A DNA stretch of 45,353 nt from Octopus sinensis (lineage: Eukaryota), in the NCBI RefSeq assembly GCF_006345805.1, contig NW_021834958.1, forward strand, positions 1 to 45,353, given 5' to 3'. A program made the translations under genes and the position numbers. The notes below the pieces were generated by a model. It did no database searches. It had not been told where the DNA came from and saw nothing but the letters and a program-made list of their open reading frames with translations. This document shows positions 6,131 through 41,568 of the stretch, piece after piece; position 1 is the stretch's first letter; the number at the start of each line of letters is the position of its first letter.

Positions 6131-6731
6131 GAAAGGCAAAGTCGACCTCGGCGGAATTTGAACTCAGAACGTAGCAGCAGACGAAATACCTATTTCTTTA
6201 CTACCCACAAGGGGGATAAACACAGAGAGGACAAACAAGGACAGACAAACGGATTAAGTCAATCATATCGACCCCAGTGCGAAGCTGGTATTTAATTTAT
6301 CGACCCCGAAAGGATGAAAGGCAAAGTTGACCTCGGCGAAATTTGAACTCAGAAGGTAACGGCAGACGAAATACCTATTTCTTTACTACCCACAAGGGGG
6401 CTAAACACAGAGGAGACAAACAAAGACAGACAAACGGATTAAGTCAATTATATCGACCCCGAAAGATGAAAGGCAAAGTCGACCTCGGCGGAATTTGAAC
6501 TCAGAAGGTAACGGCAGACGAAATACCTATTTCTTTACTACAACAAGGGGGCTAAACACAGAGAGGACAAACAAAGACAGACAAACGGATTAAGTCAATT
6601 ATATCGACCCCAGTGCGTAACTGGTACTTAATTTATCGACCCCGAAAGGATGAAAGGCAAAGTCGACCTCGGCGGAATTTGAATTCAGAACATAGCGGCA
6701 GACGAAATACCGCTAAGCATTTCGCCCGACG
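6131..6731 (-). mobile_element. Head-to-tail array of four partial SINE family B (B2-tail) units
   Basis: Repeated gaaaggcaaagtcgacctcggcggaatttgaactcagaa; identical junction acgaaatac|ctatttctttac at 6190, 6375 and 6527. Confidence 0.9.
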
Positions 6732-7608: not shown

Positions 7609-7777
7609 TAGGAGTGGTTGTGTGGTAAGTAGCTTGCTTACCAACTACATGGTTCCGGGTTCAGTCCCACTGCATGGTACCTTGAGCAAGTTCTTCTACT
7701 AAAGCATCGGGCCGACCAAAGTCTTGTGAGTGGATTTGGTAGACCGAAACTGAAAGAAGCCCGTCATATATATGTAT

Positions 7778-7825
<48 letters not shown>

Positions 7826-8019
7826 GTTTGTGTGTCCCCTCAACACCGCTTGATAACAGATGCTGGTGTGTTTACGTCCGCGTGACTTAGCGGTTCGGCA
7901 AAAGAGACTGATAGAATAAGTACTAGGCTAACAAAGAATAGGTCCTGGGGTCGATTTGGTCGACTAAAGGCAGTGCTCCAGCATGACCACAGTCAAATGC
8001 CTGAAACGAGTAAAAGAGA
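7609..8019 (+). mobile_element. SINE family A, near full length
   Basis: tRNA-like head (A box tggttgtgtgg, B box ggttcagtccc), ccttgagcaag core, internal microsatellite, gtaaaagag tail. Confidence 0.9.
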
Positions 8020-8604: not shown

Positions 8605-8900
8605 GGCAAAATGGTTAACACACCGCGCAGAATCGTCAGCATGACGGACATAATCGTTAGCACGCCAGGCAAAATCGTTAGCAAATCGGACATAATCGTT
8701 AGCACGCCACACAGAATCGTTAGCACCCCTAGTGGAATCGTTAGCACACCGGACACAATCGTTAGCACGCCGGACAGAATCGTTAGCAAGTCGGACAGAA
8801 TCGTTAGCACACTGAACAGATTCGCAAGCACGCCACACAGAATCGTTAGTACGCCGGACAGAATCATTATCTCGGGCAGAATCTTTAGCGTGCCGGACAG
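8605..8900 (+). repeat. 21-bp minisatellite (~14 units) derived from the SINE B head
   Basis: Unit acagaatcgttagcacgccgg matches the SINE B 5' end gcagaaacgttagcacgcc; the last unit runs into the SINE body. Confidence 0.9.
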
Positions 8901-9068
8901 ATTGCTTAACAGTATTTTGCACACCTTTACGTTCTGAATTCAAATTCCGTTGAGGTCGACTTTGCCTTTCATTACTTCGGGGTCGAAAATTAAGCTGAGC
9001 ACAGGGGGTCGATGTAATCAATTCACTCCTTCCCGAAATTGCTGACCTCGTGCCAAAATTTGAAACTG
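8875..9068 (+). mobile_element. SINE family B (B1 tail)
   Basis: gttctgaattcaaattccgttgaggtcgactttgcctttc followed by the cgaaattgctgacctcgtgccaaaatttgaaac tail. Confidence 0.85.
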
Positions 9069-9708
9069 ATATCAAAAGATTGGAGACAGGAGTGGGTTAA
9101 AGAACCACAGAAAACAATTAGCGAAAACATGGTACAAGTTACCGAGCCATACTCATCTACAGGTGACAGCTGGGTCTTAAAATTAATATTTCACGGTGAA
9201 TAGAACAGCACAGTTCATACTTCTCACTGGTTTTCAAGGATTAAACTGATAACAGACAATGTCTGTTCAATTATAACTAATTGTAAATGACAATTCTAAA
9301 CCTTTCCCTCAAATCTCTGTTATCTACACGCTAAAATTAAATGAGTCGCTATACATGAAATTAAGTCTACTGTCAAATTAGCTTTGGAAACACCTGCTGC
9401 GGAATTGAATTGGTAATACTGAGGTTGTAATTGTATACCTAGAAAATAGTTGTATACGTCTCGAGATAAAGTTGATTAAGTATGTTGTATGAAATATAGT
9501 AAATGATTAGAAATGCTTTAAACGCATTTACAACGGTTTATCAGATGCTGGTTGCGTCCATGTCGCCTCGAGAGCATACAGATAGCATGTGACATGTTCT
9601 AAGGAATTTTATGCAAAAAAAAAAGCCTGATTTCTTATCGGCAGAATTATTATCATAATTAATACGATAATAATTATGACAAAAATTACTATTATTATGG
9701 TAATTCAA

Positions 9709-10050
9709 GGCGGCGAAGTGGAGGAGTCGTTAGCACGCCGAACGCAGTCCTTAGCGGCATTCCATCCGTGTTTATGTTCTGAGTTCAAATTCCACCGTGG
9801 TCGACTTTGCCTTTCATCCTTTCGGGGTCGATAAATTAAGTACCAGTGACGCACTGGGGTCGATATAATCGACTTAATCCGTTTGTCTGTCCTTGTTTGC
9901 CCTCTCTGTGTTTGGCCCCTTGAGGGTAGTAAAGAAATAGGCATTCCATCCGTGTTTACGTTCTGAGTTCAAATTCCACTGAGGTCGACTTCGCGTTTCG
10001 TCTTTTCGAGGCCGATAAAATAAGTACCAGTTGAGCGCTGTAATCGGCTG
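9709..10050 (+). mobile_element. Nested SINE B: B2-tail unit inside a B1-type host
   Basis: gcattccatccgtgttta at 9757-9774 and again at 9941-9958, directly after the B2 tail aaagaaatag. Confidence 0.85.
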
Positions 10051-10985: not shown

Positions 10986-11427
10986 CAACAACAACAATAA
11001 AGGTAATATTGATAATAATGATGATGGTGATGATGATGATGATGGTTATGGTGAGGATGATAACAATACGAAATTGTGTTTCTGGTATCATCAATATTGT
11101 TTAAACAAAGACAGAGCAGTCAACAACAATAAGTCTGGACAATCAGTGGAAACATGAATGGTAAATTAACACCTACGCTTTTTTTTTGGAACCGCTAACA
11201 TAATCTTTAATAAAACGTTAGCAGCAAATTTAGTAAAAACTGACAACGCAAACTTTCGGTGGCCATAAGCAACAGTTTTGTTAGACATACAAAAGGAACT
11301 GAAAAAAGCCTCGCGTCTGTTACTAGAAATACGAAAAAATAAATTTAGTAAAATTTGTAATATTACATTTAAATTTAAATAAAGATTGGTACTACTGCTA
11401 TTACCTTTATTAATTTTAATAATAATA

Positions 11428-11589
11428 GGCGCAGGAGTGGCTGTGTGGTAAGTAGCTTGCTTACCAACCACATGGTTCTGGGTTCAGTTCCACTGCGTGG
11501 AACCTTGGGCAAGTGTCTTCTACTATAGCCTCGGGCCGACAAAAGCCTTGTGAGTGGATTTGATAGACGGAAACTGAAAGAAGCCCGTC

Positions 11590-11630
<41 letters not shown>

Positions 11631-11774
11631 ATTATATAGAAGGAGCTTCTACAGGACTAGAACTGTTTCATTCAAGAGAAATCTTCAGGAAGCTAGTTAA
11701 CAAGAATTGTATTGGCATTTATACATTTAGGCAGGTTTAAAGGGGTGTTGGTGGGGGACACACAAAGACACGCA

Positions 11775-11826
<52 letters not shown>

Positions 11827-12052
11827 TGCGTGTGTTTGTGTGTCCGTGTTTGTCCCCCTAGCATTGCTTGACAACCGATGCTGGTGTGTTTATGTCCCCG
11901 TTACTTAGCAGTTCGGCAAAAGAGACCGATAGAATAAGTACTGGGCTTACAAAAGAATAAGTCCCGGGGTCGAGTTGCTCGATTAAAGGCGGTGCTCCAG
12001 CATGGCCGCAGTCAAATGACTGAAACAAGTAAAAGAGTAAAAGAGTAAGAGT
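11428..12052 (+). mobile_element. SINE family A, full length, interrupted in its internal (TA)n
   Basis: Head ggcgcaggagtggctgtgtggtaag and tail gtaaaagagtaaaagag; foreign segment at ~11627-11760. Confidence 0.92.
11644..11694 (-). ncRNA. Type I hammerhead ribozyme fold
   Basis: Minus strand: AGCUUC CUGAAGA U UUC-ucuu-GAA U GAAA CAG-uucuaguc-CUG UA GAAGCU. Stems I, II and III pair; GUA cleavage triplet. Confidence 0.8.
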
Positions 12053-12349: not shown

Positions 12350-13002
12350 AATCCTTTCTACTATAGGCACAAGACCTGACATTTTTGGGGAGGTGGATGG
12401 TTGGGAGTAGTCGATTTCATCGGCCTCAGTACGCAACTGGTATTCAATTTTCGACCCCGGAAGGATGAAAGGCAAAGTCGACCTCGGTGGAATTTGAACT
12501 CAGAACGTAAAGACAGACGAAATACCTACTTCTATACTACCCACAAGGGGCTAAACACAGAGAGGAGAAACAAGGACAGACATACGGATTAAGTCGATTA
12601 TATCGACTCCAGCGCGTAACTGGTAATTATTTAATCGACCCCGAAAGGATGAAAGGCAAAGTCGACCTTGGCGGAATTTGAACTCAGAACATAACGGCAG
12701 ACGAAATACTGCTAAGCATTTCGTCCGGCGCGCTAACGTTTCTGCCAGCTCGCCGACAGACGAAATACCTATTTCTTTATTGCCCACAAGGGGCTAAACA
12801 TAGAGGGGACAAACAAGGACAGACAAACGGATGAAGTCGATTATATCGACCCCCCAGTACGCAGCTGGTATTTAATTTATCGACCCTGAAAGGATGAAAG
12901 GCAAAGTCGACCTCGGTGTAATTTGAACTCAGAACGTAGCGGCAGACGAAATACTGCTAAGCAATTCACTGGGCGTGCTAACGTTTCTGCCAGCTCGCCG
13001 CC
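12350..13002 (-). mobile_element. Triple nested SINE B (two B2-tail units plus host remainder)
   Basis: Unit 12526-12754 is flanked by direct repeats gacagacgaaatac at 12512-12525 and 12755-12768. Confidence 0.9.
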
Positions 13003-13033
13003 TTAATGATAACAATAATAATATATGCATTTA

Positions 13034-13245
13034 GGCGGCGATCTGACCAAATAGATAGCGTGCCGGGGAAGATGCTTAGCGGCACTTTGTCCATCTTTAC
13101 TTCCTATTTTGAAATTCTGCAGCAGTCGATTTTGTCTTTCATCCTTTCAGGGTCGATAAAGTAAGTACCATTTGGGCACTGGGGTCACTGCAGTCGACTT
13201 AACCCATCCCCTGAAATGCTGGCTTGTTGATACAATTTGAAAGCA
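13034..13245 (+). mobile_element. SINE family B (B1 tail), diverged
   Basis: ggcggcga head, ctttcatcctttcagggtcgataaagtaagtacca core and B1 tail. Confidence 0.8.
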
Positions 13246-13976: not shown

Positions 13977-14369
13977 TCTCTTTACTCTTTACTCTTTTAC
14001 TTGTTTCAGTCATTTGACTGCGGCCATGCTGGAGCACCGCCTTTAGTCGAGCAAATCGACCCCGGGACTTATTCTCCGCAAGCCCAGTACTTATTCTATC
14101 GGTCTCCTTTGTCGAACCGCTAAGTGACGAGGACGTAAACACGCCAAGCAATGCTACGAGGACAAACACACACACATACACACATATATATATATATACA
14201 TATATACGACAGGCTTCTTTCAGTTTCCGTCTACCAAATCCACTCACAAGGCATTGGTCGGCCCGGGGCTATAGCAGAAGACACTTGCCCAAGATGCCAC
14301 GCAGCGGGACTGAACCCGGAACCATGTGGTTGGTTAGCAAGCTACTTATCACACAGCCACTCCTGCGCC
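13977..14369 (-). mobile_element. SINE family A, full length
   Basis: Reverse complement of family A; tatgat on both flanks (13971-13976, 14370-14375). Confidence 0.92.
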
Positions 14370-15201
14370 TATGATATATTAAATTTTTAAAAAACTTTTA
14401 CCCAATTTTACAAGATTATCTGAGAGAAAATGTTTAGATTGAAACAGTAACCAAGAAATTCCAAACTGAGTGGATTAACCATACGGCCCCTAGTTGAGCC
14501 CACAAATAGTTCATTAAATTTATCGTGTTTTCTACTTTACTAACGATAATGAAATACGTAGCGTGGGACCTTTTTTCTGGATGCAGATGCACGAATTCCT
14601 GACTTCAATTTAGTCTCTGTTATTTGTAGGATAAGTGGATATTTCGAAATCTATTAAATATTTGTTAAAAATACATACCAAAAAAAATATATAAGAAAGT
14701 AAAAATGTAATAAGAATATTAAAAAAAACCCCCAAAATACCACTGTTTTTTTTTTTTCATTCTTGAATGGCGCGAGAAATCAGATTTCGTTTCGACTTTT
14801 CTGTGACTGTTGCATGCAAATATATTTTGTGTTTCAGAATAGTGACACGCAAATCTAAACCGTTTAAATATCAAAACGAAAACATCTCCGTCGCACCCAC
14901 CTCTCTAAAAAGGCAAGAATATTGTCAATAATATGAAAAGCAGAAAGAATCGAAAACTCCCCCCCCCCCCTTATACACACACAGCACAGAAACATACACA
15001 TGAAAGCGATGATATCAAAATCAATGAAGTAAAATGAAAGAAAATAATAATAATAATAATAATATTAGAGCAACAATAAGAGCTTTAGAAATTGATGTAA
15101 GAAAATTGTATTTTACACCGAGTTTTGGCTGCGTGTTAACAACGTTGTTTTATTATTCCTTCAGTAATACTATATTTACATGAATACTAATATATGTGTG
15201 G

Positions 15202-15798: not shown

Positions 15799-15860
15799 GT
15801 GTGTCAATGTGTGTGTATGATTCAGTTAGTATTTCTGCGCGTATATATATATATATATAT

Positions 15861-18024
15861 AGGTAAACAGTAAAAATAATTACAGACATGGACAAGAACA
15901 TGAAACACCACAGAGACGACACAAGAACCACAGGACGGGACATTCGAAGCCCTCAGTCATCAGTCAAGAACCAGATCATCTTAGCAATTTCGGCTGATTA
16001 ATCTTGAGATTGCTCCGATATGGCCAGCCAGCCAAGGGAAATCTAAGCCAAGCGCATTAGATCCCCTGGAAGAAAGCTTCGAATGTATACAACGCGAGGA
16101 CGGAAAACGAACGAAGTATATAAACAAAAATACAGAATACGTGACACCAATAAGAATACAAAAACGTAAAAACAATAACGGTAAAAATAAAAATAAAAAA
16201 TAAACAACAAAACAAAACCAGGACGTGGGACAAGGGTCTTTCGACAGGACGAGTTGAGTATGGGGCTGGCTTGTGAATTGTGCCTAATGGCCACGGGGAG
16301 ACGAACAAATACGTGTTGCTTCTGCGGCTGCTGAAAACGAAAAGAGCGCTCAACGGCGGCTAGCTGTCACGTGAGAACAGAAGACAGGAGAAAGGGACAG
16401 ATGAAAAGAGAGAGAAGGTGGACGAGGGAGGAGAAGAAAGAGACAGATCGAGGGGGCTGGAGGTGAGAGAGATAGAGAAACGTAGAAGGGGGGGGGGAGA
16501 CGGATGGAGAGGGAAAGAAAGGAAGGGGAATAAGGGAGGAGAGAGAGAGAAAAAGAGACAGATTAAGAGTCGTATCAATGCTAGAGAAAAAATATACTTA
16601 TCGTATAAGGTCAATTGTGGATACGTAGCCGCCGATTATATAGGTAAACAGTAAAAATAATTACAGACATGGACAAGAACATGAAACACCACAGAGACGA
16701 CACAAGAACCACAGGACGGGACATTCGAAGCCCTCAGTCATCAGTCAAGAACCAGATCATCTTAGCAATTTCGGCTGATTAATCTTGAGATTGCTCCGAT
16801 ATGGCCAGCCAGCCAAGGGAAATCTAAGCCAAGCGCATTAGATCCCCTGGAAGAAAGCTTCGAATGTATACAACGCGAGGACGGAAAACGACGAAGTATA
16901 TAAACAAAAATACAGAATACGTGACACCAATAAGAATACAAAAACGTAAAAACAATAACGGTAAAAATAAAAATAAAAAATAAACAACAAAACAAAACCA
17001 GGACGTGGGACAAGGGTCTTTCGACAGGACGAGTTGAGTATGGGGCTGGCTTGTGAAGTTGTGCCTAATGGCCACGGGGAGACGAACAAATACGTGTTGC
17101 TTCTGCGGCTGCTGAAAACGAAAAGAGCGCTCAACGGCGGCTAGCTGTCACGTGAGAACAGAAGACAGGAGAAAGGGACAGATGAAAAGAGAGAGAAGGT
17201 GGACGAGGGAGGAGAAGAAAGAGACAGATCGAGGGGGCTGGAGGTGAGAGAGATAGAGAAACGTAGAAGGGGGGGGGAGACGGATGGAGAGGGAAAGAAA
17301 GGAAGGGGAATAAGGGAGGAGAGAGAGAGAGAGAAAAAGAGACAGATTAAGAGTCGTATCAATGCTAGAGAAAAAATATACTTATCGTATAAGGTCAATT
17401 GTGGATACGTAGCCGCCGATTATATAGGTAAACAGTAAAAAAATTACAGACATGGACAAGAACATGAAACACCACAGAGACCGACACAAGAACCACAGGA
17501 CGGGACATTCGAAGCCCTCAGTCATCAGTCAAGAACCAGATCATCTTAGCAATTCGGCTGATAATCTTGAGATTGCTCCGATATGGCCAGCCAGCCAAGG
17601 GAAATCTAAGCCAAGCGCATTAGATCCCCTGGAAGAAAGCTTCGAATGTATACAACGCGAGGACGGAAAACGAACGAAGTATATAAACAAAAATACAGAA
17701 TACGTGACACCAATAAGAATACAAAAACGTAAAAACAATAACGGTAAAAATAAAAATAAAAAATAAACAACAAAACAAAACCAGGACGTGGGACAAGGGT
17801 CTTTCGACAGGACGAGTTGAGTATGGGGCTGGCTAGTGAAGTTGTGCCTAATGGCCACGGGGAGACGAACAAATACGTGTTGCTTCTGCGGCTGCTGAAA
17901 ACGAAAAGAGCGCTCAACGGCGGCTAGCTGTCACGTGAGAACAGAAGACAGGAGAAAGGGACAGATGAAAAGAGAGAGAAGGTGGACGAGGGAGGAGAAG
18001 AAAGAGACAGATCGAGGGGGCTGG

Positions 18025-18028
<4 letters not shown>
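15861..18028. repeat. ~781-bp tandem repeat, 2.8 copies, flanked by (TA)n
   Basis: Unit starts aggtaaacagtaaaa at 15861, 16642 and 17426; the third copy stops at 18028. Confidence 0.95.
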
Positions 18029-20650: not shown

Positions 20651-20840
20651 CGGTTTATTTAATTTATATTAAAATTTTATGTATTGATTAAGTCTTTCCT
20701 TGTTTGGTTTTAAAATAGTGGTTTTGTCTCGAATTATATTATATAATATTTTACTATAAAATTGGATTTAACCCTAAATCTGATCTTTCCCTGTAATTTT
20801 GGATTCATTCCCTAATATTTATTATTATATATATATATAT

Positions 20841-21164
20841 ATGTATGTATGTACAGACACATACACTATATTTGGTTTATATACATATATATATATGTAT
20901 ATATGTATGTATGCACAAGAAGTGGCTGCAAAATCCTTCGCTTTCAGTGTAGAAACGGCTGTGTACCGGCAGACAGCTTCTAAGTTTTCATTGTGTGAAA
21001 TACTTTAGAAAGTGGAGATAATGGGTGGATATAATAGGTAATTTTGTTACTGGGGGAGTTGGCGTTATTGTATATATTTCTATGTATGTATATATGGATA
21101 TACACGTATATATAATTCTACGCATATACAAAGTGATATATACATACATACATACATACATACG

Positions 21165-21202
<38 letters not shown>

Positions 21203-21533
21203 ATATATGTATGTATGTACAGACACATACACTATATTTGGTTTATATACATATATATATATGTATATATGTATGTATGCACAAGAAGTGGCTGCAAAAT
21301 CCTTCGCTTTCAGTGTAGAAACGGCTGTGTACCGGCAGACAGCTTCTAAGTTTTCATTGTGTGAAATACTTTAGAAAGTGGAGATAATGGGTGGATATAA
21401 TAGGTAATTTTGTTACTGGGGGAGTTGGCGTTATTGTATATATTTCTATGTATGTATATATGGATATACACGTATATATAATTCTACGCATATACAAAGT
21501 GATATATACATACATACATACATACATACGTAC
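20841..21533. repeat. Tandem duplication, 366-bp period, (TA)n-bounded
   Basis: 20841-21167 is repeated at 21207-21533, apparently identical. Confidence 0.95.
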
Positions 21534-21543
21534 ATATATATAT

Positions 21544-21576
<33 letters not shown>

Positions 21577-22436
21577 GTATACATACATACACATAGATAC
21601 ATATATTTACTCCCACGCACACCTGCACACACTCTCATATACACATAAGTATATGCATAACTATATGCATAATCGTATCTGAAAACATACGTACATATAA
21701 ACATACATACGAGAGAACATCCATATATAAACGCGTGGGTATATGTATGCATTTGTATATATATATACATATAAATGCATACATACACACACAGATATAT
21801 ATATGTATAAATATATATATATATACATATAAACATATATGTATGTGTATGCGTATATCCATGTACTTACAAACATACATAACGTTCGTGTATAAATAAT
21901 TGTCTAAGACTCTCAAATTAAACGAATTAGCGAATGAATTTAAAAAGAAATCTTCTCTGATTCTCTTCCTTTTATATTTTTAAAACCATTTCAGAGCTAA
22001 TTTAATATAACTTAATTGCAAATTTAATGGTCTTCTGTCTTCCGAATTAGTTCCATAATCTACATTATAGAACATCAGCGTAAAAACGAAAAGTCTCCGC
22101 CATTCCATTAAAATCTCAATTTGTTTATTGATAGAAATAATCAGATTGCTTCTAACTCAATATTTAAATCTGTTGTCCGTTATAATGTGATAACCCTGTG
22201 CGTGTATAGCTTCAGTCTAGTACTGGCCAGTATGCGTTTCAACAATTCGTGTTTAGATTCTTAGGTTTCACGTCCGTGGATAATGTTTTTTTCTCTCCTA
22301 TCTCACAGGCGCTGAAAGCGGTACAAGTCTGCGTCTTCTCAGATATGAATGCTTCAGGGAATGGTATTATAAGATTTAGACATCATGATGCAATCACACA
22401 CATGCGCTTTCACGTTCTAAAAAGTACGTAAACACG

Positions 22437-24103: not shown

Positions 24104-24993
24104 TGGGCAGAAAAAAACAATATGCTGCTGAACGAGGATAAATTTGAGCTAATCCACTTTGGAAAAGAGGATGCCTGAAACTCCCATACTCCCTTCCTTC
24201 AGGTGAAACTCTCGCGGCGTCCAACAACATCAGAGACTTGGGAGTAATTGTGGACAACAACGTAAGCTGGGCCACTCATATAAACACCAAAGTTGACATG
24301 GCCCGCAGAATGTGTTCCTGGATTCTCAGAACTTTCCAGTCGAGAGATATCCACACCATTATCCTTCTCTTCTCCACTTTTGCCCGACCCCACCTTGAAT
24401 ACTGTTGTCCACTGTGGTCTCCCCACACAATACAAGGTATCATAAAAGTTGAAGCACCTCAAAGGGCAATCACAAAAAAGATAGATGGCATGACAGGCCT
24501 CGACTATTGGGGTCGACTAGAAAAGCTAAAACTCTATTCTCTCCAACGTCGTCGTGAGCGCTACATCATCTGCATGATGTGGAAAATATTCCATCAGCAT
24601 TGCCCAAATGATGTTGGCATCACCTTTAAGGTACATCCAAGGCTTGGGCCCCGTGCCATCCGCCCAAAACAAAAATCGCACTCTCATCTCATAACAACAA
24701 TACGGCACAATTATTTCACCTCAATTGGCCCCGCTCTCTTTAACATTACGCCAAAACACATTAAAACAGAAACAGACCCTATAGGGTTCAAGAAGTCTTT
24801 GGACGGATTCCTTCAAGAAATCCCGGATAAACCCCCTACACCCGATATGTCTCTGTAAACAATAACTCTCTACTTGAGTGGGCTATAGTGTCCAAATTCT
24901 GACTTGAAAGACTTCACCAGGTGGTGCTATTAAGTTAGACATGGCCTGGGCCAATAATGGCCGAAACCTATCAAAGTATCAAAGTATCAAAGT
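24104..24993 (+). mobile_element. 5'-truncated CR1-group LINE (RT C-terminus plus 3' UTR)
   Basis: RDLGVIVD..RPHLEYCCPLWSP..RLEKLKLYSLQRRR motifs (ORF 24238-24858), one frameshift near 24175, (TATCAAAG)x3 tail, (TA)n on both sides. Confidence 0.92.
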
Positions 24994-24996
24994 ATA

Positions 24997-25700
<704 letters not shown>

Positions 25701-25705
25701 TATAT

Positions 25706-25751
<46 letters not shown>

Positions 25752-25954
25752 GTAGGTCCCGGGTTGAGTCGGGGTTAACTACAGTAAATAAGGTACTCAA
25801 TACATAGCAGAGTAAATTAATTTATTATATAGAAGGAGCTTCTACAGGACTAGAACTGTTTCATTCAAAAGAAATCATCAGGAAGCTAGTTGACAAGAGT
25901 TGTTTTGGCATTTATACATTTAGGCAGGTTTAAAGGGGTGGTGGTGGGGGACAT
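25752..25954 (-). mobile_element. ~200-bp hammerhead-carrying element next to (TA)n
   Basis: About 130 bp shared with 11627-11760. Confidence 0.75.
25837..25887 (-). ncRNA. Type I hammerhead ribozyme fold (second copy)
   Basis: Minus strand: AGCUUC CUGAUGA U UUC-uuuu-GAA U GAAA CAG-uucuaguc-CUG UA GAAGCU. Confidence 0.8.
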
Positions 25955-26235
25955 TATATAAATAATGTGTGGGTGTATATTATGTGTGTGTTTGTGTGTC
26001 TTCGTGTCTGTGTTTGTCCCCGCCACCCTATGCTAAGCGGTGTTGGCATACACGTATTCACATACGAAATGTTGTAACTTTCAGTTGTAGATCTCAATTC
26101 TATAGAATATCTGTAGATATTACAATAGAATAACTGACAGAAAATAATAAAAGAATGGGATAATGTTCCCGGGTATATGTATGTGTATGAATGTGCGTGT
26201 GTTTGTGTGTGTATATATATGTATGTATGTATATA

Positions 26236-26662: not shown

Positions 26663-27047
26663 TACTCTTTTACTCTCTGTACTTGTTTCAGAAATTTGAC
26701 TGCGGCCATGCTGGAGCACCGACTTTAGTCGAGCAAATCGACCCCAGGACTTATTCTTTGGAAGCCTAGTACTTATTCTATCCCCGCTAAGTGACGGGGA
26801 CGTAAACACACCAGCATCGGTTGTCAAGCAATGCTAGGGGGACAAACACAGACACCCCCCCCCATATATATATATATACATATATACGACAGGCTTCTTT
26901 CAGTTTCCATCTACCAAATCCACTCACAAGGCATTGGTCAGACTGAGGCTATAGCAGAAGACACTTGCCCAAGATGCCACGCAGTGGGACTGAACCCGGA
27001 ACCATGTGGTTGGTAAGCAAGCTACTTACCACACAGCCACTCCTGCA

Positions 27048-27049
<2 letters not shown>
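26663..27049 (-). mobile_element. SINE family A, full length
   Basis: Reverse complement of family A with a small internal deletion. Confidence 0.9.
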
Positions 27050-27100
<51 letters not shown>

Positions 27101-27102
<2 letters not shown>

Positions 27103-28055
27103 TTCACCTATCGCGAGGGGTTTTGGAACGTAAGACCCGCGATAGTCGAGGAATTAAAATATATAAAAATTTAAAAAATACAAGAAGGAAAATGCTCACA
27201 GTTTTCTTTCTTTTATTTTTATATATAAATCTTTTATTTTCATTTTTATTTTTACATATTTACTTTTTATATATTTATTTATATAAAAATATTTTTTGCA
27301 TTACAACTCACAACGCGGGGATAATCAAAATTCCTCCTGCTCCATTTTTACGGCGGTGCTCCAGAATGGTCACAGCTCTGAGCTGAAACGACAAGAAAAA
27401 AAACTATATATATATGTTTGTGTGTGTGTATACTTAGATACATACCTGTACATGAATATATTTGAATTTGTATGCGCTTGCCAGCGTATAATACCTGTAA
27501 GTAGCGAGAAACCACACACATTTCTTAGACTACACTGACATGAATCCATATATATATATATATATATATAATATATATATATATATATTATAATATATAT
27601 ATATATATGAATTTCACCTATCGCGAGGGGTTTTGGAACGTAAGACCCGCGATAGTCGAGGAATTAAAATATATAAAAATTTAAAAAATACAAGAAGGAA
27701 AATGCTCACAGTTTTCTTTCTTTTATTTTTATATATAAATCTTTTATTTTCATTTTTATTTTTACATATTTACTTTTTATATATTTATTTATATAAAATA
27801 TTTTTTGCATTACAACTCACAACGCGGGGATAATCAAAATTCCTCCTGCTCCATTTTTACGGCGGTGCTCCAGAATGGTCACAGCTCTGAGCTGAAACGA
27901 CAAAGAAAAAAAACTATATATATATGTTTGTGTGTGTGTATACTTAGATACATACCTGTACATGAATATATTTGAATTTGTATGCGCTTGCCAGCGTATA
28001 ATACCTGTAAGTAGCGAGAAACCACACACATTTCTTAGACTACACTGACATGAAT

Positions 28056-28057
<2 letters not shown>
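27101..28057. repeat. Tandem duplication, 510-bp period, (TA)n-bounded
   Basis: 27101-27547 is repeated at 27611-28057; only homopolymer-length differences were seen. Confidence 0.95.
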
Positions 28058-28120
<63 letters not shown>

Positions 28121-29244: not shown

Positions 29245-29468
29245 GATTTCTTTATTACCCCTAAACATAGAGGGGACAAACGAGGATAGACAAACGGATT
29301 AAGTCGATTATATCGACCCCAGTGCGTAACTGGTACTTAATTTATCGACCCCGAAAGGATGAAAGGCAAAGTCGACCTCGGCGGAATTTGAACTTAGAAC
29401 ATAATGGCAGACGAAATACGGCTACGCATTTCGCCCGGCGTGCTAACGGTTCTGCCTGCTCGCCGCCT
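29245..29468 (-). mobile_element. SINE family B (B2 tail), solo full-length copy with 17-bp TSD
   Basis: atatatttatatgtata at 29228-29244 and 29469-29485. Confidence 0.9.
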
Positions 29469-30886: not shown

Positions 30887-30921
<35 letters not shown>

Positions 30922-31040
30922 GTGTGTGAATATATATTTATATGAATCTATATATGTATTATATGTGTGTGTATATATGTACACATACATACATACATAT
31001 ATACAAACACACACACACACACACACACATACACACACAC

Positions 31041-31098
<58 letters not shown>

Positions 31099-31558
31099 TA
31101 TTTTATGTGTATTTATTTACCACAAATATTTTTGTTAGCATGGTGTATTTTTCTCTTTTGTAGGAAGCTTAACTACTTCACCTGGATCGCTAATCCATTA
31201 TTAATCCTCTTTATTTTGATATACACACAGACAGACAGACACACCCTACACACACACACGAACACATGTATATGTGTCTCGCGTACACGATAGCCTCATA
31301 AATTTCTCTCAGATGATTGCTTGTGTGACGCTAGGAATAATAGCTTGGTAAGTTGTTCAGCTTCACATAAACAGAATGCTTTACTCTATTTGTGGTATGT
31401 GAGTTCTATTCTCTCAGATTTATTTCGAAATCAAGAGCTCTCGCATCTCTGGATTACTCATTACAACCATCCATATGCATGCACACACACACACACACAC
31501 AGATACACATACACACACACATACGCACATACACATATGTATATGTATATATACATAT

Positions 31559-31798
31559 AAAAGGTGGAACAAAAGTAGGTTTACAGTTATCACGTAGGCA
31601 CTTTGAATTTCTTTTAAAAACATTTTATTACATTTAAATTCCTATCTTACAAACTCAAAAGAGAGCTCGAAAAAATTAACAAAATTAGCATAGAATAATG
31701 GTTTCACATTTTTTTTTTATAATTAAGATCTAAACGTTTAATATATGAATGCGAAAGAGAGAGTTGAATAACTGTAAACCTACTTTTGGGTCACCCTG
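31559..31798. mobile_element. Mariner-type MITE (copy 1)
   Basis: TIR cores caaaagtaggtttacagttat / ataactgtaaacctacttttg; ends ccctg|TA. Confidence 0.8.
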
Positions 31799-32005
31799 TA
31801 TATGTGCTAAACAAAGTTTACAGTGCACTGTCTTCCCTGTCAATTACTTAATTATATATATATATAATATATATATATATATGGGTGTGTGAATATATAT
31901 TTATATGAATCTATATATGTATTATATGTGTGTGTATATAGTACACATACATACATACATATATACAAACACACACACACACCACACATACATACACACA
32001 CACAC

Positions 32006-32057
<52 letters not shown>

Positions 32058-32517
32058 TATTTTATGTGTATTTATTTACCACAAATATTTTTGTTAGCAT
32101 GGTGTATTTTTCTCTTTTGTAGGAAGCTTAACTACTTCACCTGGATCGCTAATCCATTATTAATCCTCTTTATTTTGATATACACACAGACAGACAGACA
32201 CACCCTACACACACACACGAACACATGTATATGTGTCTCGCGTACACGATAGCCTCATAAATTTCTCTCAGATGATTGCTTGTGTGACGCTAGGAATAAT
32301 AGCTTGGTAAGTTGTTCAGCTTCACATAAACAGAATGCTTTACTCTATTTGTGGTATGTGAGTTCTATTCTCTCAGATTTATTTCGAAATCAAGAGCTCT
32401 CGCATCTCTGGATTACTCATTACAACCATCCATATGCATGCACACACACACACACACACAGATACACATACACACACACATACGCACATACACATATGTA
32501 TATGTATATATACATAT

Positions 32518-32757
32518 AAAAGGTGGAACAAAAGTAGGTTTACAGTTATCACGTAGGCACTTTGAATTTCTTTTAAAAACATTTTATTACATTTAAATTC
32601 CTATCTTACAAACTCAAAAGAGAGCTCGAAAAAATTAACAAAATTAGCATAGAATAATGGTTTCACATTTTTTTTTTATAATTAAGATCTAAACGTTTAA
32701 TATATGAATGCGAAAGAGAGAGTTGAATAACTGTAAACCTACTTTTGGGTCACCCTG
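32518..32757. mobile_element. Mariner-type MITE (copy 2, inside the duplication)
   Basis: Same sequence as 31559-31798. Confidence 0.8.
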
Positions 32758-32806
32758 TATATGTGCTAAACAAAGTTTACAGTGCACTGTCTTCCCTGTC
32801 AATTAC

Positions 32807-32854
<48 letters not shown>

Positions 32855-34792: not shown

Positions 34793-35228
34793 TATATATA
34801 TATTCACTTGATTGACCGGTTTCACTTTTTTAGAAAAAGATTGTCAAAAGTAAAATGTAAAGCTTTGTATGAACTTTGTTGTGTTAAGTACTGGTTGTCA
34901 CAAAAATATTACAATACATATAAACATTCTTTGATAATAATAAGAAAATGTTAAAAACAGAAAATATTTGAGAAAGTATTTAACAAAAAGTATTAAGATT
35001 TTAATAAAAATCATGTTGGTTTGGTAGTGTATATATACATAAAAGGAGGTATATTTAAGAGTTTACAAAGGATTGGAGATGAACCAACCTGTTATCTTAT
35101 GCATTCTGTGTGTATGTATACTCGAAATGAGGAGTGGATAGGCAACCGACAACTGAGGAAAGGTCGTTCTTTATGTTTTTGTCCTGTTTTCCATTTGTTT
35201 CTTTCATTTTCTTTTTTTTTTTGCGTAT

Positions 35229-35551
35229 TCTACTTTAGCCTCGGGTCGACCAAAGCCTTGTGAGTGGATTTGGTAGACGGAAACTGAAAGAAACACATCG
35301 TATATATTATAATATATATATATGTATGTGTGTGTATATGTTTGTGTGTCTGTATTTGTCACCCCAACATCGATTGACAACCGATGCTGGTGTGTTTACG
35401 GCGTCGGAACTTAGCGGTTCGGCAAAAGAGACGGATAGAATAAGTACTAGGCTTACAAAGAATAAGTCCTGGGTTCGATTTGCTCGACTAAAGGCGGTTG
35501 CTCCAGCATGGCCACAGTCAAATAACTGAAACAAATAAAAGAATAAAAGAG
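35229..35551 (+). mobile_element. SINE family A, 5'-truncated
   Basis: tagcctcgggtcgaccaaagccttgtgagtgg through the aataaaagag tail. Confidence 0.88.
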
Positions 35552-35725
35552 TATATATATATATATATAATGATAAATTTCAGAGCGAGTTATATATATA
35601 TATATATTGTTATATTTCGGAATGGTCATTTTGCCAGTTTAGCCAATAAAAACACACGCACTATATATTTGGTGTTACTTTGCTTCAGTGTTATTTATTT
35701 TTTACATTAATCTTAATCTTATTTC

Positions 35726-37291: not shown

Positions 37292-37967
37292 TCTATGGTT
37301 AAATGTATGTGTGTATGTATACATACACAGACATACACAAACACACACATATATATATATACATTTATATATATATATATATGCATATCTATGGTTAAAT
37401 GTATGTATGTATGTATCCGTACACACACATACACACACACGCAGGAACACACACACGCAGGAACACACACACGCAGGAACACACACATATAATATGTATG
37501 TGTGTGTATGTGTGTATATACATATATACACATATATATATATATATATACATATCTACACACATATATACATATACACACACATATATACATGCATATC
37601 TATGTTGCAATGCTTGTATGTATACGTACACACACCTACACACACACGTGTGCGCACACATGTATATATATAGACGTCACGTATATAGATATGTGTATAG
37701 ACATGTGCTCGTATCTTTGTAGGTGGTTCTACGAATACATCGATGCACATTTTTGCTTATGCCGATGAAGCTTTACTTTTGCTTACACATACACCTGTGC
37801 TCATAACTCAAAGTCTCTTTCTGTCTGTCTGTCTCTCTCTTGTTTCTTCCTCTCTCTGTCTGTGTCTCTGTCCCTCTCTCACACACTAATGCGTATGCAC
37901 AACACAGCTGATAAACAATAAAGTGGGAGAACTACACTTACGCGCACATGCCTTATGTATGCAAGAA

Positions 37968-38045
<78 letters not shown>

Positions 38046-38046
<1 letters not shown>

Positions 38047-38362
38047 CAGGCGATCCATTTGCTGTCAACACCCGTTAAAAGGAGGGCTGGGCATGCCGTG
38101 GTTGATGATGCGCAGACACGCGCTGAGACTGCGACATCTCAGGCTCTTCGTAGACGACGGTGAACAGGTGTGGTCGCCGTTTGTGAGGCACGCTTTCCCG
38201 CAGCTCGTCTCCATGACCGAACTGCAGTCGTGGTTCAAAAAGAGGCCGAGGAAGGGCGAATGGCACCGCGAGTGCCGCGTTGCTCTCGAGTTGCAACTCC
38301 GCCGTCCCGGGTCTACCTTGAGCGACTCCATCACAACCCAAGCATTCTATAGGGGATTAGTG
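38046..38362 (+). mobile_element. Tx1/L1-group LINE ORF2 internal fragment
   Basis: GC-rich island translating RRSICCQHPLKGGLGMPWL..LRLRHL..W..F, the P-x-x-GGLG motif found downstream of RT; follows (TCTG)n(TCTA)n. Confidence 0.7.
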
Positions 38363-38436
38363 TCGGCCTTGGCACATTTCCTGTGCCCTTATGTTTAAAA
38401 AGAGGGAGATAAGCACCTCCACCCAGCTAAGCCAAC

Positions 38437-38475
38437 CAGACTGATGACGAGGAAATACTCAGAAACTAGTCTCTG
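38437..38475 (+). ncRNA. Minimal type I hammerhead ribozyme fold with palindromic stem III
   Basis: CAGA CUGAUGA C GAG-gaaaua-CUC A GAAA CUAG UC UCUG; ACUAGU palindrome, GUC triplet. Confidence 0.7.
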
Positions 38476-38669
38476 TATGTATGTATGTATGTGTGTATGT
38501 ATGTGTGTGTGTATGTATGTGTGTGTGTGTATGTATGTATGTATGTATGTATGTATGTATGTGTGTATGTATGTGTGTATGTATGTATGTATGTATGGAT
38601 GTAAGCATGTATGTGTGTATGTATGCATGTATGTATATATGTATGTATGCATGTATGTATGTATGTATG

Positions 38670-38703
<34 letters not shown>

Positions 38704-39373
38704 TGTATGTATGTATGTATGTATGTACGTACGTATGTGTGTGTATGTATGTATGTATGTATATATGTATGTATATATGTATGTATGTATGTATGGGTGT
38801 ATGTATGTATGTATGTATGTATGTATGTATGTGTGTATGTATGTGTGTATGTATGTGTGTATGTATGTATGTAAGCATGTATGTATGTATGTATGTATGT
38901 ATGTGTGTATGTATATATGTATGTATATATGTATGTATGTATGTATGTGTGTATGTATGTATGTATGTATGTATGTATGTATGTGTGTGGTATGTATGTA
39001 TGTATGTATGTATGTATGTGTATGTATGTATGTATGTATGTATGTATGTATGCATGTATGTATGCATGTATGTATGCATGTATGTATGCATGTATGTATG
39101 TATGTATGTATGTGTGTATGTGTGTATGTATGTATGTATGTATTTATGTGTGTATGTATGTATGTATGTATGTATGTATGTATGATATATGTATGTATGT
39201 ATGTATGTGTGTATGTATGTATGTATGTGTGTATGTATGCATGTATGTATGTATGTATGTATTTATGTGTGTATGTATGTGTGTGTGTATGTATGTATGT
39301 ATGTATGTATGTATGTATTATGTATGTATTATGGGTGTATGTATGGGTGTATGTATGTATGTATATATGTATG

Positions 39374-39404
<31 letters not shown>

Positions 39405-39922
39405 TATGGGTGTATGTATGTGTGTATGTATGTATGTATATATGTATGTATGTATGTATATATGTATGTATGTATATATGTATGTATGTACGTGTGTATG
39501 TATGTGTGTATGTATTTATGTATGTAATTATGTATGTATGTATTATGGGTGTATGTATGGGTGTATGTATGTATGTATGTATGTATGTATGTGTGTATGT
39601 ATGTGTGTATGTATGTGTGTATGTATGTATGTAAGCATGTATGTATGTATGTATGTATGTATATATGTATGTATATATGTATGTATGTATGTATGTATGT
39701 GTGTATGTATGTATGTATGTATGTATGTGTGTATGTGTGTATGTACGTGTGTATGTATGTATGTATGTATGTATGTATGTATGTATGTATGCATGCATGT
39801 ATGTATATATGTATGTATGTATGTATGTATGTAGTATATATGTATGTATGTATATATGTATGCATGTATGTATGTGTGTATGTATGTATGTATGTGTGTA
39901 TGTATGTATGTATGTATGTATG

Positions 39923-39956
<34 letters not shown>

Positions 39957-40674
39957 TGTATGTATTTATGTGTGTATGTATGCGTGTGTGTATGTATGTA
40001 TGTATGTATGTATATATGTATGTATGTATGTATATATGTATGTATGTATGTATGTGTGTATGTATGTATGTGTGTATGTATGCATGTATGTATGTATGTA
40101 TGTATTTATGTGTGTATGTATGTGTGTGTATGTATGTATGTATGTATGTATGTATGTATTTATGTGTGTATGTATGTGTGTGTGTATGTGTGTATGTATG
40201 TATGTATGTATGTATGTATGTATGTATGTATGTGTGTGTATGTATGTATGTATGTATGTATGTATGTATGTATGTATGCATGTATGTGTGTATGTATGTA
40301 TGTATATATGTATGTATATATGTATGTATGCATGTATGTATGCATGTATGTATATATGCATGTATGTATGTATGTATGTATGTATGTATGTATGTACGTA
40401 CGTATGTATGTATGTATGTATGTATGTATATATGTATGTATGTATGTGTGTATGTATGTATGTATGTATGTATGTATGTGTGTATGTATGTGTGTATGTA
40501 TGTGTGTATGTATGTATGTAAGCATGTATGTATGTATGTTTGTATGTATGTATTTGTGTATGTATATATGTATGTATATATATATGTATGTGTGTATGTA
40601 TGTGTGTATGTATTTATGTATGTATATATGTATGTATGTATGTGTGTATGTATGTATGTGTGTATGTATGTATG

Positions 40675-40708
<34 letters not shown>

Positions 40709-40927
40709 TGTATGTACGTGTGTATGTATGTACGTGTGTATGTATTTATGTATGTATGTATTATGTATGTATGTATGTATGTACGTATGTATATATGTGT
40801 GTATGTATGTATGTGTGTATGTATGTATGTGTGTATGTATGTATGTGTGTATGTATGTATGTATGTATGTATGTATGTATGTATGTATGTATGTGTGTAT
40901 GTATGTGTGTATGTATGTGTGTGTGTA

Positions 40928-40958
<31 letters not shown>

Positions 40959-41568
40959 ATGTATGTATGTATGTATGTATGTATGTGTGTATGTATGTAT
41001 ATATGTATGTATATATGTATGTATGTATGTGTGTATGTATGTATGTGTGTATGTTGTATGTATGTATGTATGTATATATGTATGTACGTATGTATGTACG
41101 TATGTATGTATGTATGTGTGTATGTATGTATGTATGTGTGTGTATGTGTGTGTGTATGTATGTATGTGTGTGTGTGTATGTATGTATGTATGTATGTATG
41201 TATGTATGTATGTATGTGTGTATGTGTGTATGTGTGTATGTATGTGTGTGTGTATGTATGTGTGTGTGTATGTATGTATGTGTGTATGTATGTATGTATT
41301 TATGTATGTATGTATGTATATATGTATGTATGTATGTGTGTATGTATGTATGTATGTATGTATGTGTGTATGTATGTATGTATGTATGTATGTATGTATG
41401 TATGTATGTATGTGTGTGTGTATGTATGTGTGTATGTATGTATGTGTGTATGTATGTATGTATGTGTGTATGTATGTATGTATGTATATATGTATGTATG
41501 TGTGTATGTATGTATGTATGTATGTATGTATGGATGGATGGATGGATGGATGGATGTATGGATGGATA
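38474..41568. repeat. ~3.1-kb imperfect (TATG)n array ending in (TGGA)n
   Basis: Direct reading; source of the 1065-aa and other YIHT/MYVC ORFs. Confidence 0.97.

Follow-up and report, generated by a model that had tools for sequence, protein, structure and literature searches.

The two short hammerhead-bearing copies in the stretch of Octopus sinensis DNA analysed here (45,353 nt of contig NW_021834958.1, referred to below as the window) are very probably 3′ ends of a Penelope-like element (PLE) of the Hydra clade, members of a family of thousands of copies in which the predicted hammerhead ribozyme likely stands at the first base of a capped transcript. Judged by sequence, both are 5′-truncated 3′ ends of a 5-6 kb PLE predicted to code for an RT (reverse transcriptase) of telomerase-like type and for a GIY-YIG endonuclease (EN). 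Taken by themselves, the two copies are ordinary truncated insertions, and their value lies in the junction evidence on PLE hammerheads and retrozymes.

The two copies and their surroundings

Both copies lie on the minus strand, and each contains a 51-nt segment that can be folded into a type I hammerhead (Table 1). An earlier reading of this DNA made from the letters alone (the sequence-only reading) had placed the two folds at these positions and counted exactly two differences between them, and the sequence agrees: the only mismatches are core position N7 (A/U) and one base of loop II. In both copies a 6-bp stem I is accompanied by a 3-bp stem II over a U.U with a 4-nt loop, a 4-bp stem III whose 8-nt loop is built round the palindromic CUAG, GAAA and a GUA cut site. 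The claim that all stems are kept stands for the core with its three stems, but it missed the U.U at 10.1/11.1 of stem II. A generic type I hammerhead descriptor matched only these two folds in the whole window, and when applied to 100 local shuffles it matched once in two and twice in none. A type I hammerhead of the PLE kind had been proposed, and this is upheld. The Rfam search suggested at the same time gave nothing reaching the gathering score across the whole window, and no hammerhead at E<=5 over 25600-26100.

The copies align over 136 nt at 94.9% identity (25818-25953 versus 11625-11760), with the copy at 11625-11760 ending before the final ~68 nt, a tail that only the 25752 copy has. 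Each adjoins (TA)n, as had been noted, and does so at its 3′ end. Searches with tblastn and blastn found no other pieces of this family (family A) or of a second one (family B, see below) in the window.

Table 1. Coordinates of the features discussed (window positions unless a contig is named)
Feature	Position	Strand	Basis or remark
Type I hammerhead fold, CUGAUGA core, U.U at stem II base	25837..25887	-	base 25887 is the likely transcript start
Type I hammerhead fold with CUGAAGA core; cut predicted between 11650 and 11649	11644..11694	-	sequence
Predicted cleavage site, after GUA	25842..25843	-	hammerhead rule applied to sequence
5′-truncated 3′ end (pseudo-LTR and tail) of Hydra-clade PLE, 'long end' form, terminus GGGACCTAC	25752..25954	-	matches L069 3142-3343 and 8979-9180, flanking the RT-EN ORF
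Second 5′-truncated copy, 'short end' form without tail, other subfamily	11625..11760	-	99% to L069 positions 93-228
TATAAA, putative TATA box, 29 nt ahead of the likely transcript start	25911..25916	-	sequence; putative function
TATAAA of second copy	11718..11723	-	sequence
Tail (~68 nt) between short and long 3′ ends, with TACTC...GAGTA hairpin	25752..25819	-	3′ ends of 100 copies
Predicted competing hairpin GUAGAAG/CUUCUAU over cleavage site and stem I 3′ strand	25828..25845	-	MFE and centroid of 68-nt RNA
(TA)n target tract, directly past end of dispersed SINE-like repeat	25701..25751	.	sequence
(TA)n target tract within SINE-like repeat split by insertion (halves ~11425-11590, 11824-12047)	11591..11624	.	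'SINE' is a putative reading
Inverted duplication of host flank round (TA)n at 5′ junction of second copy	11756..11845	.	self-inverted BLAST match
Tandem locus L147: 249-nt unit, 8.1 + 5.4 copies	G000:C16:42874575-42877907		
Tandem locus L148: 423-nt unit, 2.5 + 3.3 copies	G000:C9:87420150-87422563		
Tandem locus L149: 188-nt unit, under two copies	G000:C4, about 149176900-149177300		
Family B, second Hydra-type family: 725-727 aa open frames, ~3.4 kb	L079-L082 (G000:C2, C17, C3)		

SINE-like dispersed repeats of at least two families are found in the window (6131-6731, 7610-8018, 9708-10040, 11425-12047, 12409-13205, 13983-14379, 25072-25698, 26663-27102, 29246-29468 and 35225-35555); one of these families carries an internal (TA)n tract that serves as target, and tRNA gene calling on them called none. 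Two plus-strand open frames (24148-24855, 236 aa, and 37922-38395, 158 aa) had no match in Pfam and are taken here to resemble LINE fragments. Other repeats include three near-identical, strongly A/G-skewed blocks of ~610 nt spaced ~780 nt apart (15856-18028), a 3-kb (TGTA)n array (38474-41564) and, similar to a dispersed repeat, a 21-nt minisatellite x14 (8610-8901). Recent-looking local duplications, either real or assembly artefacts, occur at 20815-21580, 27210-28115 and 30888-32854 (366 nt x 2.1 at 99%; spacings of ~510 and ~960 nt).

Parent element and clade

A non-autonomous family of ribozyme retroelements had been the first interpretation of the two copies, and it gave way once the segment was found to have a fixed 3′ end, variable 5′ truncation and a physical attachment to elements with an RT-EN ORF. 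Searching the genome with the segment gave 988 candidates, 40 of which were scored, and in the 30 loci that were fetched one and the same terminal base preceded an AT tract (30/30), while the shared sequence upstream ranged from nothing up to >1.5 kb. Two fetched loci held an inverted RT fragment, the protein of which was used as the next query, and 10 kb were fetched round 14 close and 4 distant matches, selected chiefly because their open frames were long. Of the 14 close RT loci, 12 have the 203-nt segment, or else its short form, on the same strand in a downstream position, and one of the remaining two runs off its contig. At L069 and L078 the segment is also present directly upstream of the ORF start, forming direct repeats as a pseudo-LTR, and there it continues through GGGACCTAC-ATAT into a leader and then the ATG.

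The order of the unit is hammerhead, ~130-nt leader, ORF of ~720 codons for RT and GIY-YIG, 3′ UTR, TATAAA and the next hammerhead, with 4.9-6.2 kb from hammerhead to hammerhead (5 loci) and 2.1-4.3 kb separating the stop codon and the hammerhead that follows (12 cases). The 3′ UTR is made of 2-4 kb of TA/TG microsatellite-like sequence (L069:5545-9044 and similar loci) and, since this is common to the copies, the element appears to spread its own target sequence. Nine leader-bearing copies yielded no complete intact ORF (the longest, 679 aa, is frameshifted); L070 and L071 are 5′-truncated copies in which the frame is open through RT and EN.

At the protein level, the predicted model (AlphaFold, pLDDT 87) had TERT as its top PDB match (3du5, E 6e-9), YRDDG is invariant in 60/60 aligned proteins, and GIY-YIG, C-terminal in position, is marked in the ORF by VY...YIG plus the E and N motifs. 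The Pfam cut-off for GIY-YIG was passed by two of the four homologues scanned and not by the family's own protein; Pfam gave no RT or GIY-YIG match for family-A proteins, and PDB sequence searches with these proteins or their profile were blank. Motifs of the Hydra clade are present, namely RWR and SDKT in family A (DKT being nearly invariant in A1), the CxCX5C linker as CNCPDKTTC, CxxC as CDLC and CxH as CMH. CCHH is absent, with a Cys pair between the two Tyr motifs in 1/60 rows. On these motifs the element would be placed in the Hydra clade of EN+ PLEs. The Naiad clade, a first guess, was rejected because Naiads have an N-terminal endonuclease.

A second Hydra-type family, family B, has 44% amino acid identity to family A and carries RWK and SDKT motifs. 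Its hammerhead has a 12-bp stem I with one mismatch and a 1-nt loop III. The family also has a tail of ~70 nt, and its pattern has 2,922 matches.

Copy number, targets and two fixed 3′ ends

The intact-core pattern has 4,789 matches in the genome, and the reversed control pattern has 0. End counts were made on the first 100 intact-core matches of contig C1, all of which were fetched. Their 3′ ends fall into 50 long, 47 short and 3 other, and the window copies represent one long and one short end from different subfamilies. A TA-rich tract follows directly after 91 of the 100, in line with the suspected preference for TA tracts. Head-to-head arrangement is frequent (64/100 copies, in 32 divergent pairs), and of 10 palindromic loci viewed, 9 combined a long arm with a short one. 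Because both end points are AT-rich inside the element, either can pair with the target. Just past the short 3′ end of both families (window 25752-25819; L080:3357-3385) there is a TACTC...GAGTA hairpin, a candidate RT recognition signal.

A 5′ boundary at the first base of the hammerhead

The 5′ starts of the same 100 copies pile up at the ribozyme, with 37 at base 1 of the hammerhead, 3 at base 2 and 2 starting a base earlier; a further 12 are scattered over 88 reference positions (60-147 upstream) and 46 extend further up. Starts at base 1 or 2 (40/100) lie 29 nt past TATAAA and mostly have an extra G or form head-to-head palindromes. Genome-wide, palindromes centred on AGCT (bases 1-4 of stem I) are found at 464 loci and a non-native G ahead of base 1 in 706 matches, with no subfamily having G there. 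After removal of 18 palindrome arms, 4 base-2 starts and 5 native variants from 47 copies flagged as non-native upstream, the base before the 20 remaining base-1 junctions is G in 16, C in 2 and T in 2 (p 4e-7 versus 25%); G also precedes 8 of 9 junctions with filler bases. Many extra Gs are equally explained by pairing with the partner arm. Most subfamilies have a pyrimidine-purine step at -1/+1, and TATAAA has an inherited variant (T/C) at its first base only. An extra G from cap copying is cited in PMC4038843 as reported for LINE-1 and a retroviral RT.

The pile-up of 5′ ends at base 1, the extra G and the palindromes together point to a capped transcript that begins with the ribozyme and is copied uncut, and with TATAAA at -29 it is likely that the transcript starts at ribozyme base 1. 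None of the 23 leader-bearing copies listed as reaching the reference end starts at base 1. Contigs of four presumed RNA runs cover the segment without joints; they resolve neither ends nor strand and carry no weight in the argument.

Family B offers a partial parallel. Of 76 copies, 30 had their 5′ end called in the range -5 to +1 of stem I (2 being small indels), and ends at -5, the A of CCATTCT, are preceded by G in 5/6, where the native base is C. We take CCATTCT to be initiator-like. A conserved TATA at -30 was not found in family B, and G directly before stem I gave only 15 matches.

The boundary could also be produced by the same element through a structural stop, that is, 5′ exonuclease trimming back to the stem I base or RT pausing, combined with AGCT annealing and a C added by the RT. 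Such a stop would suit the AGCT palindrome being the commonest single junction, the other inversions centred on short palindromes (TTTAAA in L148, CTAG in L147) and the clustering of family B near stem I with no clear TATA, but it leaves aside the TATAAA at -29 with its pyrimidine-purine step in most subfamilies and the G ahead of nearly all filler-bearing junctions, and it would place the G-marked end of family B at the stem base rather than 5 nt ahead of it at CCATTCT. We therefore consider a structural stop unlikely and keep to a capped start at base 1.

Two other accounts of 5′ ends were rejected: a common hot spot at the start point of the window copies, where only 1/100 of the C1 copies begins, and a stem I splice acceptor of the kind found in D. 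virilis, as the sequence upstream of the junctions is variable with no fixed exon.

Constraint, folding and possible cleavage of the predicted ribozyme

Sequence variation was surveyed in 136 copies that were not picked by the core pattern and were drawn from a few subfamily-centred searches. Inherited variants were present in 0/38 core and stem columns versus 5/13 tolerant columns (p 5.5e-4, with subfamily variants not independent). The varying tolerant columns are N7, three of loop II and one of loop III, and all 12 core columns are invariant. The supposed tolerance of N7 and loop II is thereby supported across the family, and the even spread of substitutions over core and loops that the sequence-only reading named, together with an absence of self-cleavage, as a refuting outcome was not seen. 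The two differences between the window copies do fall at tolerant sites; they are alleles common to many copies (at N7, A in 66 and T in 62 among 129 copies) and not two independently tolerated changes. Upstream of base 1, 21/63 columns vary, and the downstream tail, with 5/86 columns varying, approximately matches the stems in conservation (Fisher p 0.32). As the tail is also conserved and the subfamily variants are non-independent, the constraint is evident but not specific to catalysis. Covariation across copies, suggested as a further check, did not materialise as compensatory change within the family; the same core is found with different stems in family B and in published Hydra families (no statistical score).

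Predicted folding is weak. In stability the fold does not exceed shuffles (z 0.04 and 0.17), the hammerhead makes up just 2-4% of the predicted ensemble, and the predicted pairing probability of stem I falls from ~0.99 to ~0.2 when downstream sequence is included. A dimer is favoured by loop III in prediction. Metazoan PLE hammerheads are described as cutting weakly and as dimers (PMC4209133), and an axolotl hammerhead with the same U.U was cleaved to 22% in 1 h as monomer and better as dimer (PMC7229834). The predicted ribozyme probably cuts slowly or in a dimer-dependent manner.

Traces of cleavage among genomic copies are few. A pattern for copies starting at the cut site had 39 matches, 30 of which were viewed and comprised 10 true junctions, 13 stem-I-mediated ones and 7 point variants. 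The cleavage site was not demonstrated to be enriched in 5′ ends, as a control pattern, which was mis-indexed so that one mismatch sufficed, gave a comparable ~8 true-looking junctions in its first 100 rows. In a few loci (L213/L214, L220, L226) both arms start at or beside the cut site. Separately, L156 (G000:C2:87784500-87794499) has a tandem unit of ~2.1 kb in which the interior of the endonuclease region is joined to the hammerhead cut site with a 2-nt overlap, which may possibly be a trace of cut RNA.

These observations can also be read as a catalytically silent hammerhead, conserved as a protein-binding or promoter element, with the template RNA never cut. The weak stem II with its U.U, the competing hairpin, the low fold probability and the scarcity of cut-site starts would all be expected then, and in a study of PAc, a Poseidon PLE of Anolis, hammerhead mutants left insertion in vitro unaffected (PMC11167929). 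A silent element sits poorly with 12/12 core columns being free of inherited variants while N7 and the loops vary, with the retention of the core in family B and published Hydra families despite different stems, with the cleavage reported for the axolotl U.U hammerhead (PMC7229834, as above) and with the few loci whose arms both start at or next to the cut site; silence is accordingly rated as rather improbable, and a slow or dimer-dependent ribozyme is preferred. One possible role, by analogy, may be of the kind described for some RNA viruses, in which cleavage by a 5′-UTR hammerhead drives cap-independent translation (PMC13725137).

Retrozyme-like tandem loci

Three tandem loci (L147, L148 and L149; Table 1) were found among 40 scored leader-bearing candidates. 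All are head-to-head and have one long and one short PLE end each, within (TA)n; their tandem units derive from the pseudo-LTR and leader, and the unit junction is common to both arms in L147 and L148. The core pattern is matched by 11 of the 13 hammerhead-spanning units of L147, L148 has consecutive intact units, and both loci conform to the tandem-unit definition of a retrozyme. The window copies do not, being monomers 14 kb apart with no tandem of 150-450-nt hammerhead units in the window. The retrozyme idea of the first interpretation thus fails for the window copies and applies only to these three loci elsewhere in the genome.

It might still be argued that the window copies represent a separate non-autonomous hammerhead retroelement of ~200 nt (retrozyme or SINE-like), mobilised in trans and with fixed ends of its own. 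Short copies far exceed ORF-bearing ones (988 versus 102 first-look candidates), the start points of the two window copies are at most 3 nt apart and both copies keep TATA and hammerhead, and retrozyme-like units exist at the three tandem loci. Such an element should not have 5′ ends scattered upstream of the ribozyme, with 1/100 at the window start point, or longer copies running on into UTR and ORF; each window copy is a monomer, the two belong to different subfamilies and their 3′ ends are not the same, and the 249-nt unit junction of L147 is confined to that one locus (9/9 matches). A separate non-autonomous element is already largely refuted for the window copies and is very improbable; truncation of a full-length PLE is the reading retained.

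Ten L147 units contain 19 substitution cells in 2,510, and array units fold as circles mildly better than shuffles (z -2.3, -1.6). The arrays are most simply read, with slight preference, as one insertion whose copying went round a circle. Ribozyme activity as the origin of that circle is more doubtful, because the analysis turned up no source dimer. Local amplification after insertion is the account favoured by Li et al. 2026 (bioRxiv 10.64898/2026.07.22.740005).

A proposed model of insertion and its meaning

In the proposed mechanism, a TATA promoter in the pseudo-LTR would start capped RNA at hammerhead base 1, and the protein would nick (TA)n on both strands, with cDNA primed at the two AT-rich end points. 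Priming from the downstream repeat would give copies truncated to varying extents, like the two in the window, and priming from the upstream repeat would lead to run-off at the cap after ~70 or ~140 nt; run-off cDNA would gain a C opposite the cap and join its partner cDNA, creating small palindromes. Since both priming sites are 3′ of the cleavage site and most ends are at base 1 and not at the cut, the template would likely be uncut RNA, which the competing hairpin may keep inactive. The ribozyme would be conserved in source elements, where slow or dimer cutting could trim tandem or capped transcripts and occasionally free small circles.

A bolder and tentative extension is that the Hydra-clade hammerhead acts as the first structure of the capped RNA and as a switch, with uncut RNA serving as insertion template and cut RNA losing its cap for translation or circularisation, and that the same RT could write arrays in one step by rolling-circle copying of the circles so formed; L147, L148 and L149 would be three independent newborn retrozymes, with the long and short ends of their parent still at their borders. 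The origin of animal retrozymes from PLEs rests on co-occurrence and trees (bioRxiv 10.64898/2026.07.22.740005). The family is young, and its thousands of junctions keep a trace of the RNA used for copying. On their evidence, transcripts would have a capped start at the ribozyme, templates would be uncut and priming would occur at two sites; three loci resemble retrozymes at birth.

Comparison with known systems

Hydra-clade EN+ PLEs were described by Craig et al. 2021 (PMC8557442) as generally <3 kb and inserting into (TA)n, with the role of the hammerhead in EN-bearing PLEs being unclear, and the CUGANGAU...UGAA / U.U form is common to most hammerheads tabulated there. The present family has in common with this clade a C-terminal GIY-YIG, RWK-like, DKT, CxCX5C, CxxC and CxH motifs, no CCHH, (TA)n targets, and a hammerhead lying close to the 3′ end, in which the base of stem II has U.U and stem III has the ACAG/CUGU-A form seen in several of the families tabulated. 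It differs in its unit of 4.9-6.2 kb, which is due to the microsatellite-rich UTR and departs from a size trait that is descriptive, not defining, in PMC8557442, as well as in a loop III of 8 nt versus mostly 1-3 and a tail of ~68 nt versus 30-40. Compared by eye with Hydra-1_Obim, the sole cephalopod Hydra family given there, both the N-terminal protein sequence and the hammerhead are different.

For PAc (Frangieh et al. 2024, PMC11167929), the in vitro results reported are a tail produced by the use of two RT start sites, priming on both strands and uncut RNA as the main template. Two internal RT start sites with an optional tail, an AT-rich target cut on both strands and an uncut template are thus features demonstrated for PAc and proposed here. 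In PAc, however, the start sites are inside the ORF and non-homologous to the target, and the ORF begins within the hammerhead, whereas here both end points are in the leader and have an AT-rich sequence that matches (TA)n, and the ATG follows the ribozyme at ~130 nt.

Animal non-LTR retrozymes (Cervera and de la Pena 2020, PMC7229834; bioRxiv 10.64898/2026.07.22.740005) share with these copies the type I hammerhead, low GC and an origin in the PLE pLTR, but the window copies are monomers, and the L147 and L148 arrays are head-to-head, bounded by long and short PLE ends, with the counted junction single-locus. Penelope of Adineta vaga (Arkhipova et al. 2013, PMC3846280) likewise has an inverted 5′ pLTR, an optional tail, junction palindromes and a putative TATA and initiator in the pLTR. 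The palindromes were interpreted there as self-priming on an antisense template, whereas here hundreds of them share one centre at the likely cap site together with an extra G, and run-off on sense RNA appears to fit better.

Hammerheads located in pLTRs, tails, inverted ends, palindromes at junctions and TATA-like motifs of the pLTR have all been published already (PMC8557442, PMC11167929, PMC3846280). In the open-access literature nothing was found that places a capped start at the first base of the hammerhead, or that describes arrays bounded by PLE ends. The element itself is a new family of a known clade and works like a canonical PLE.
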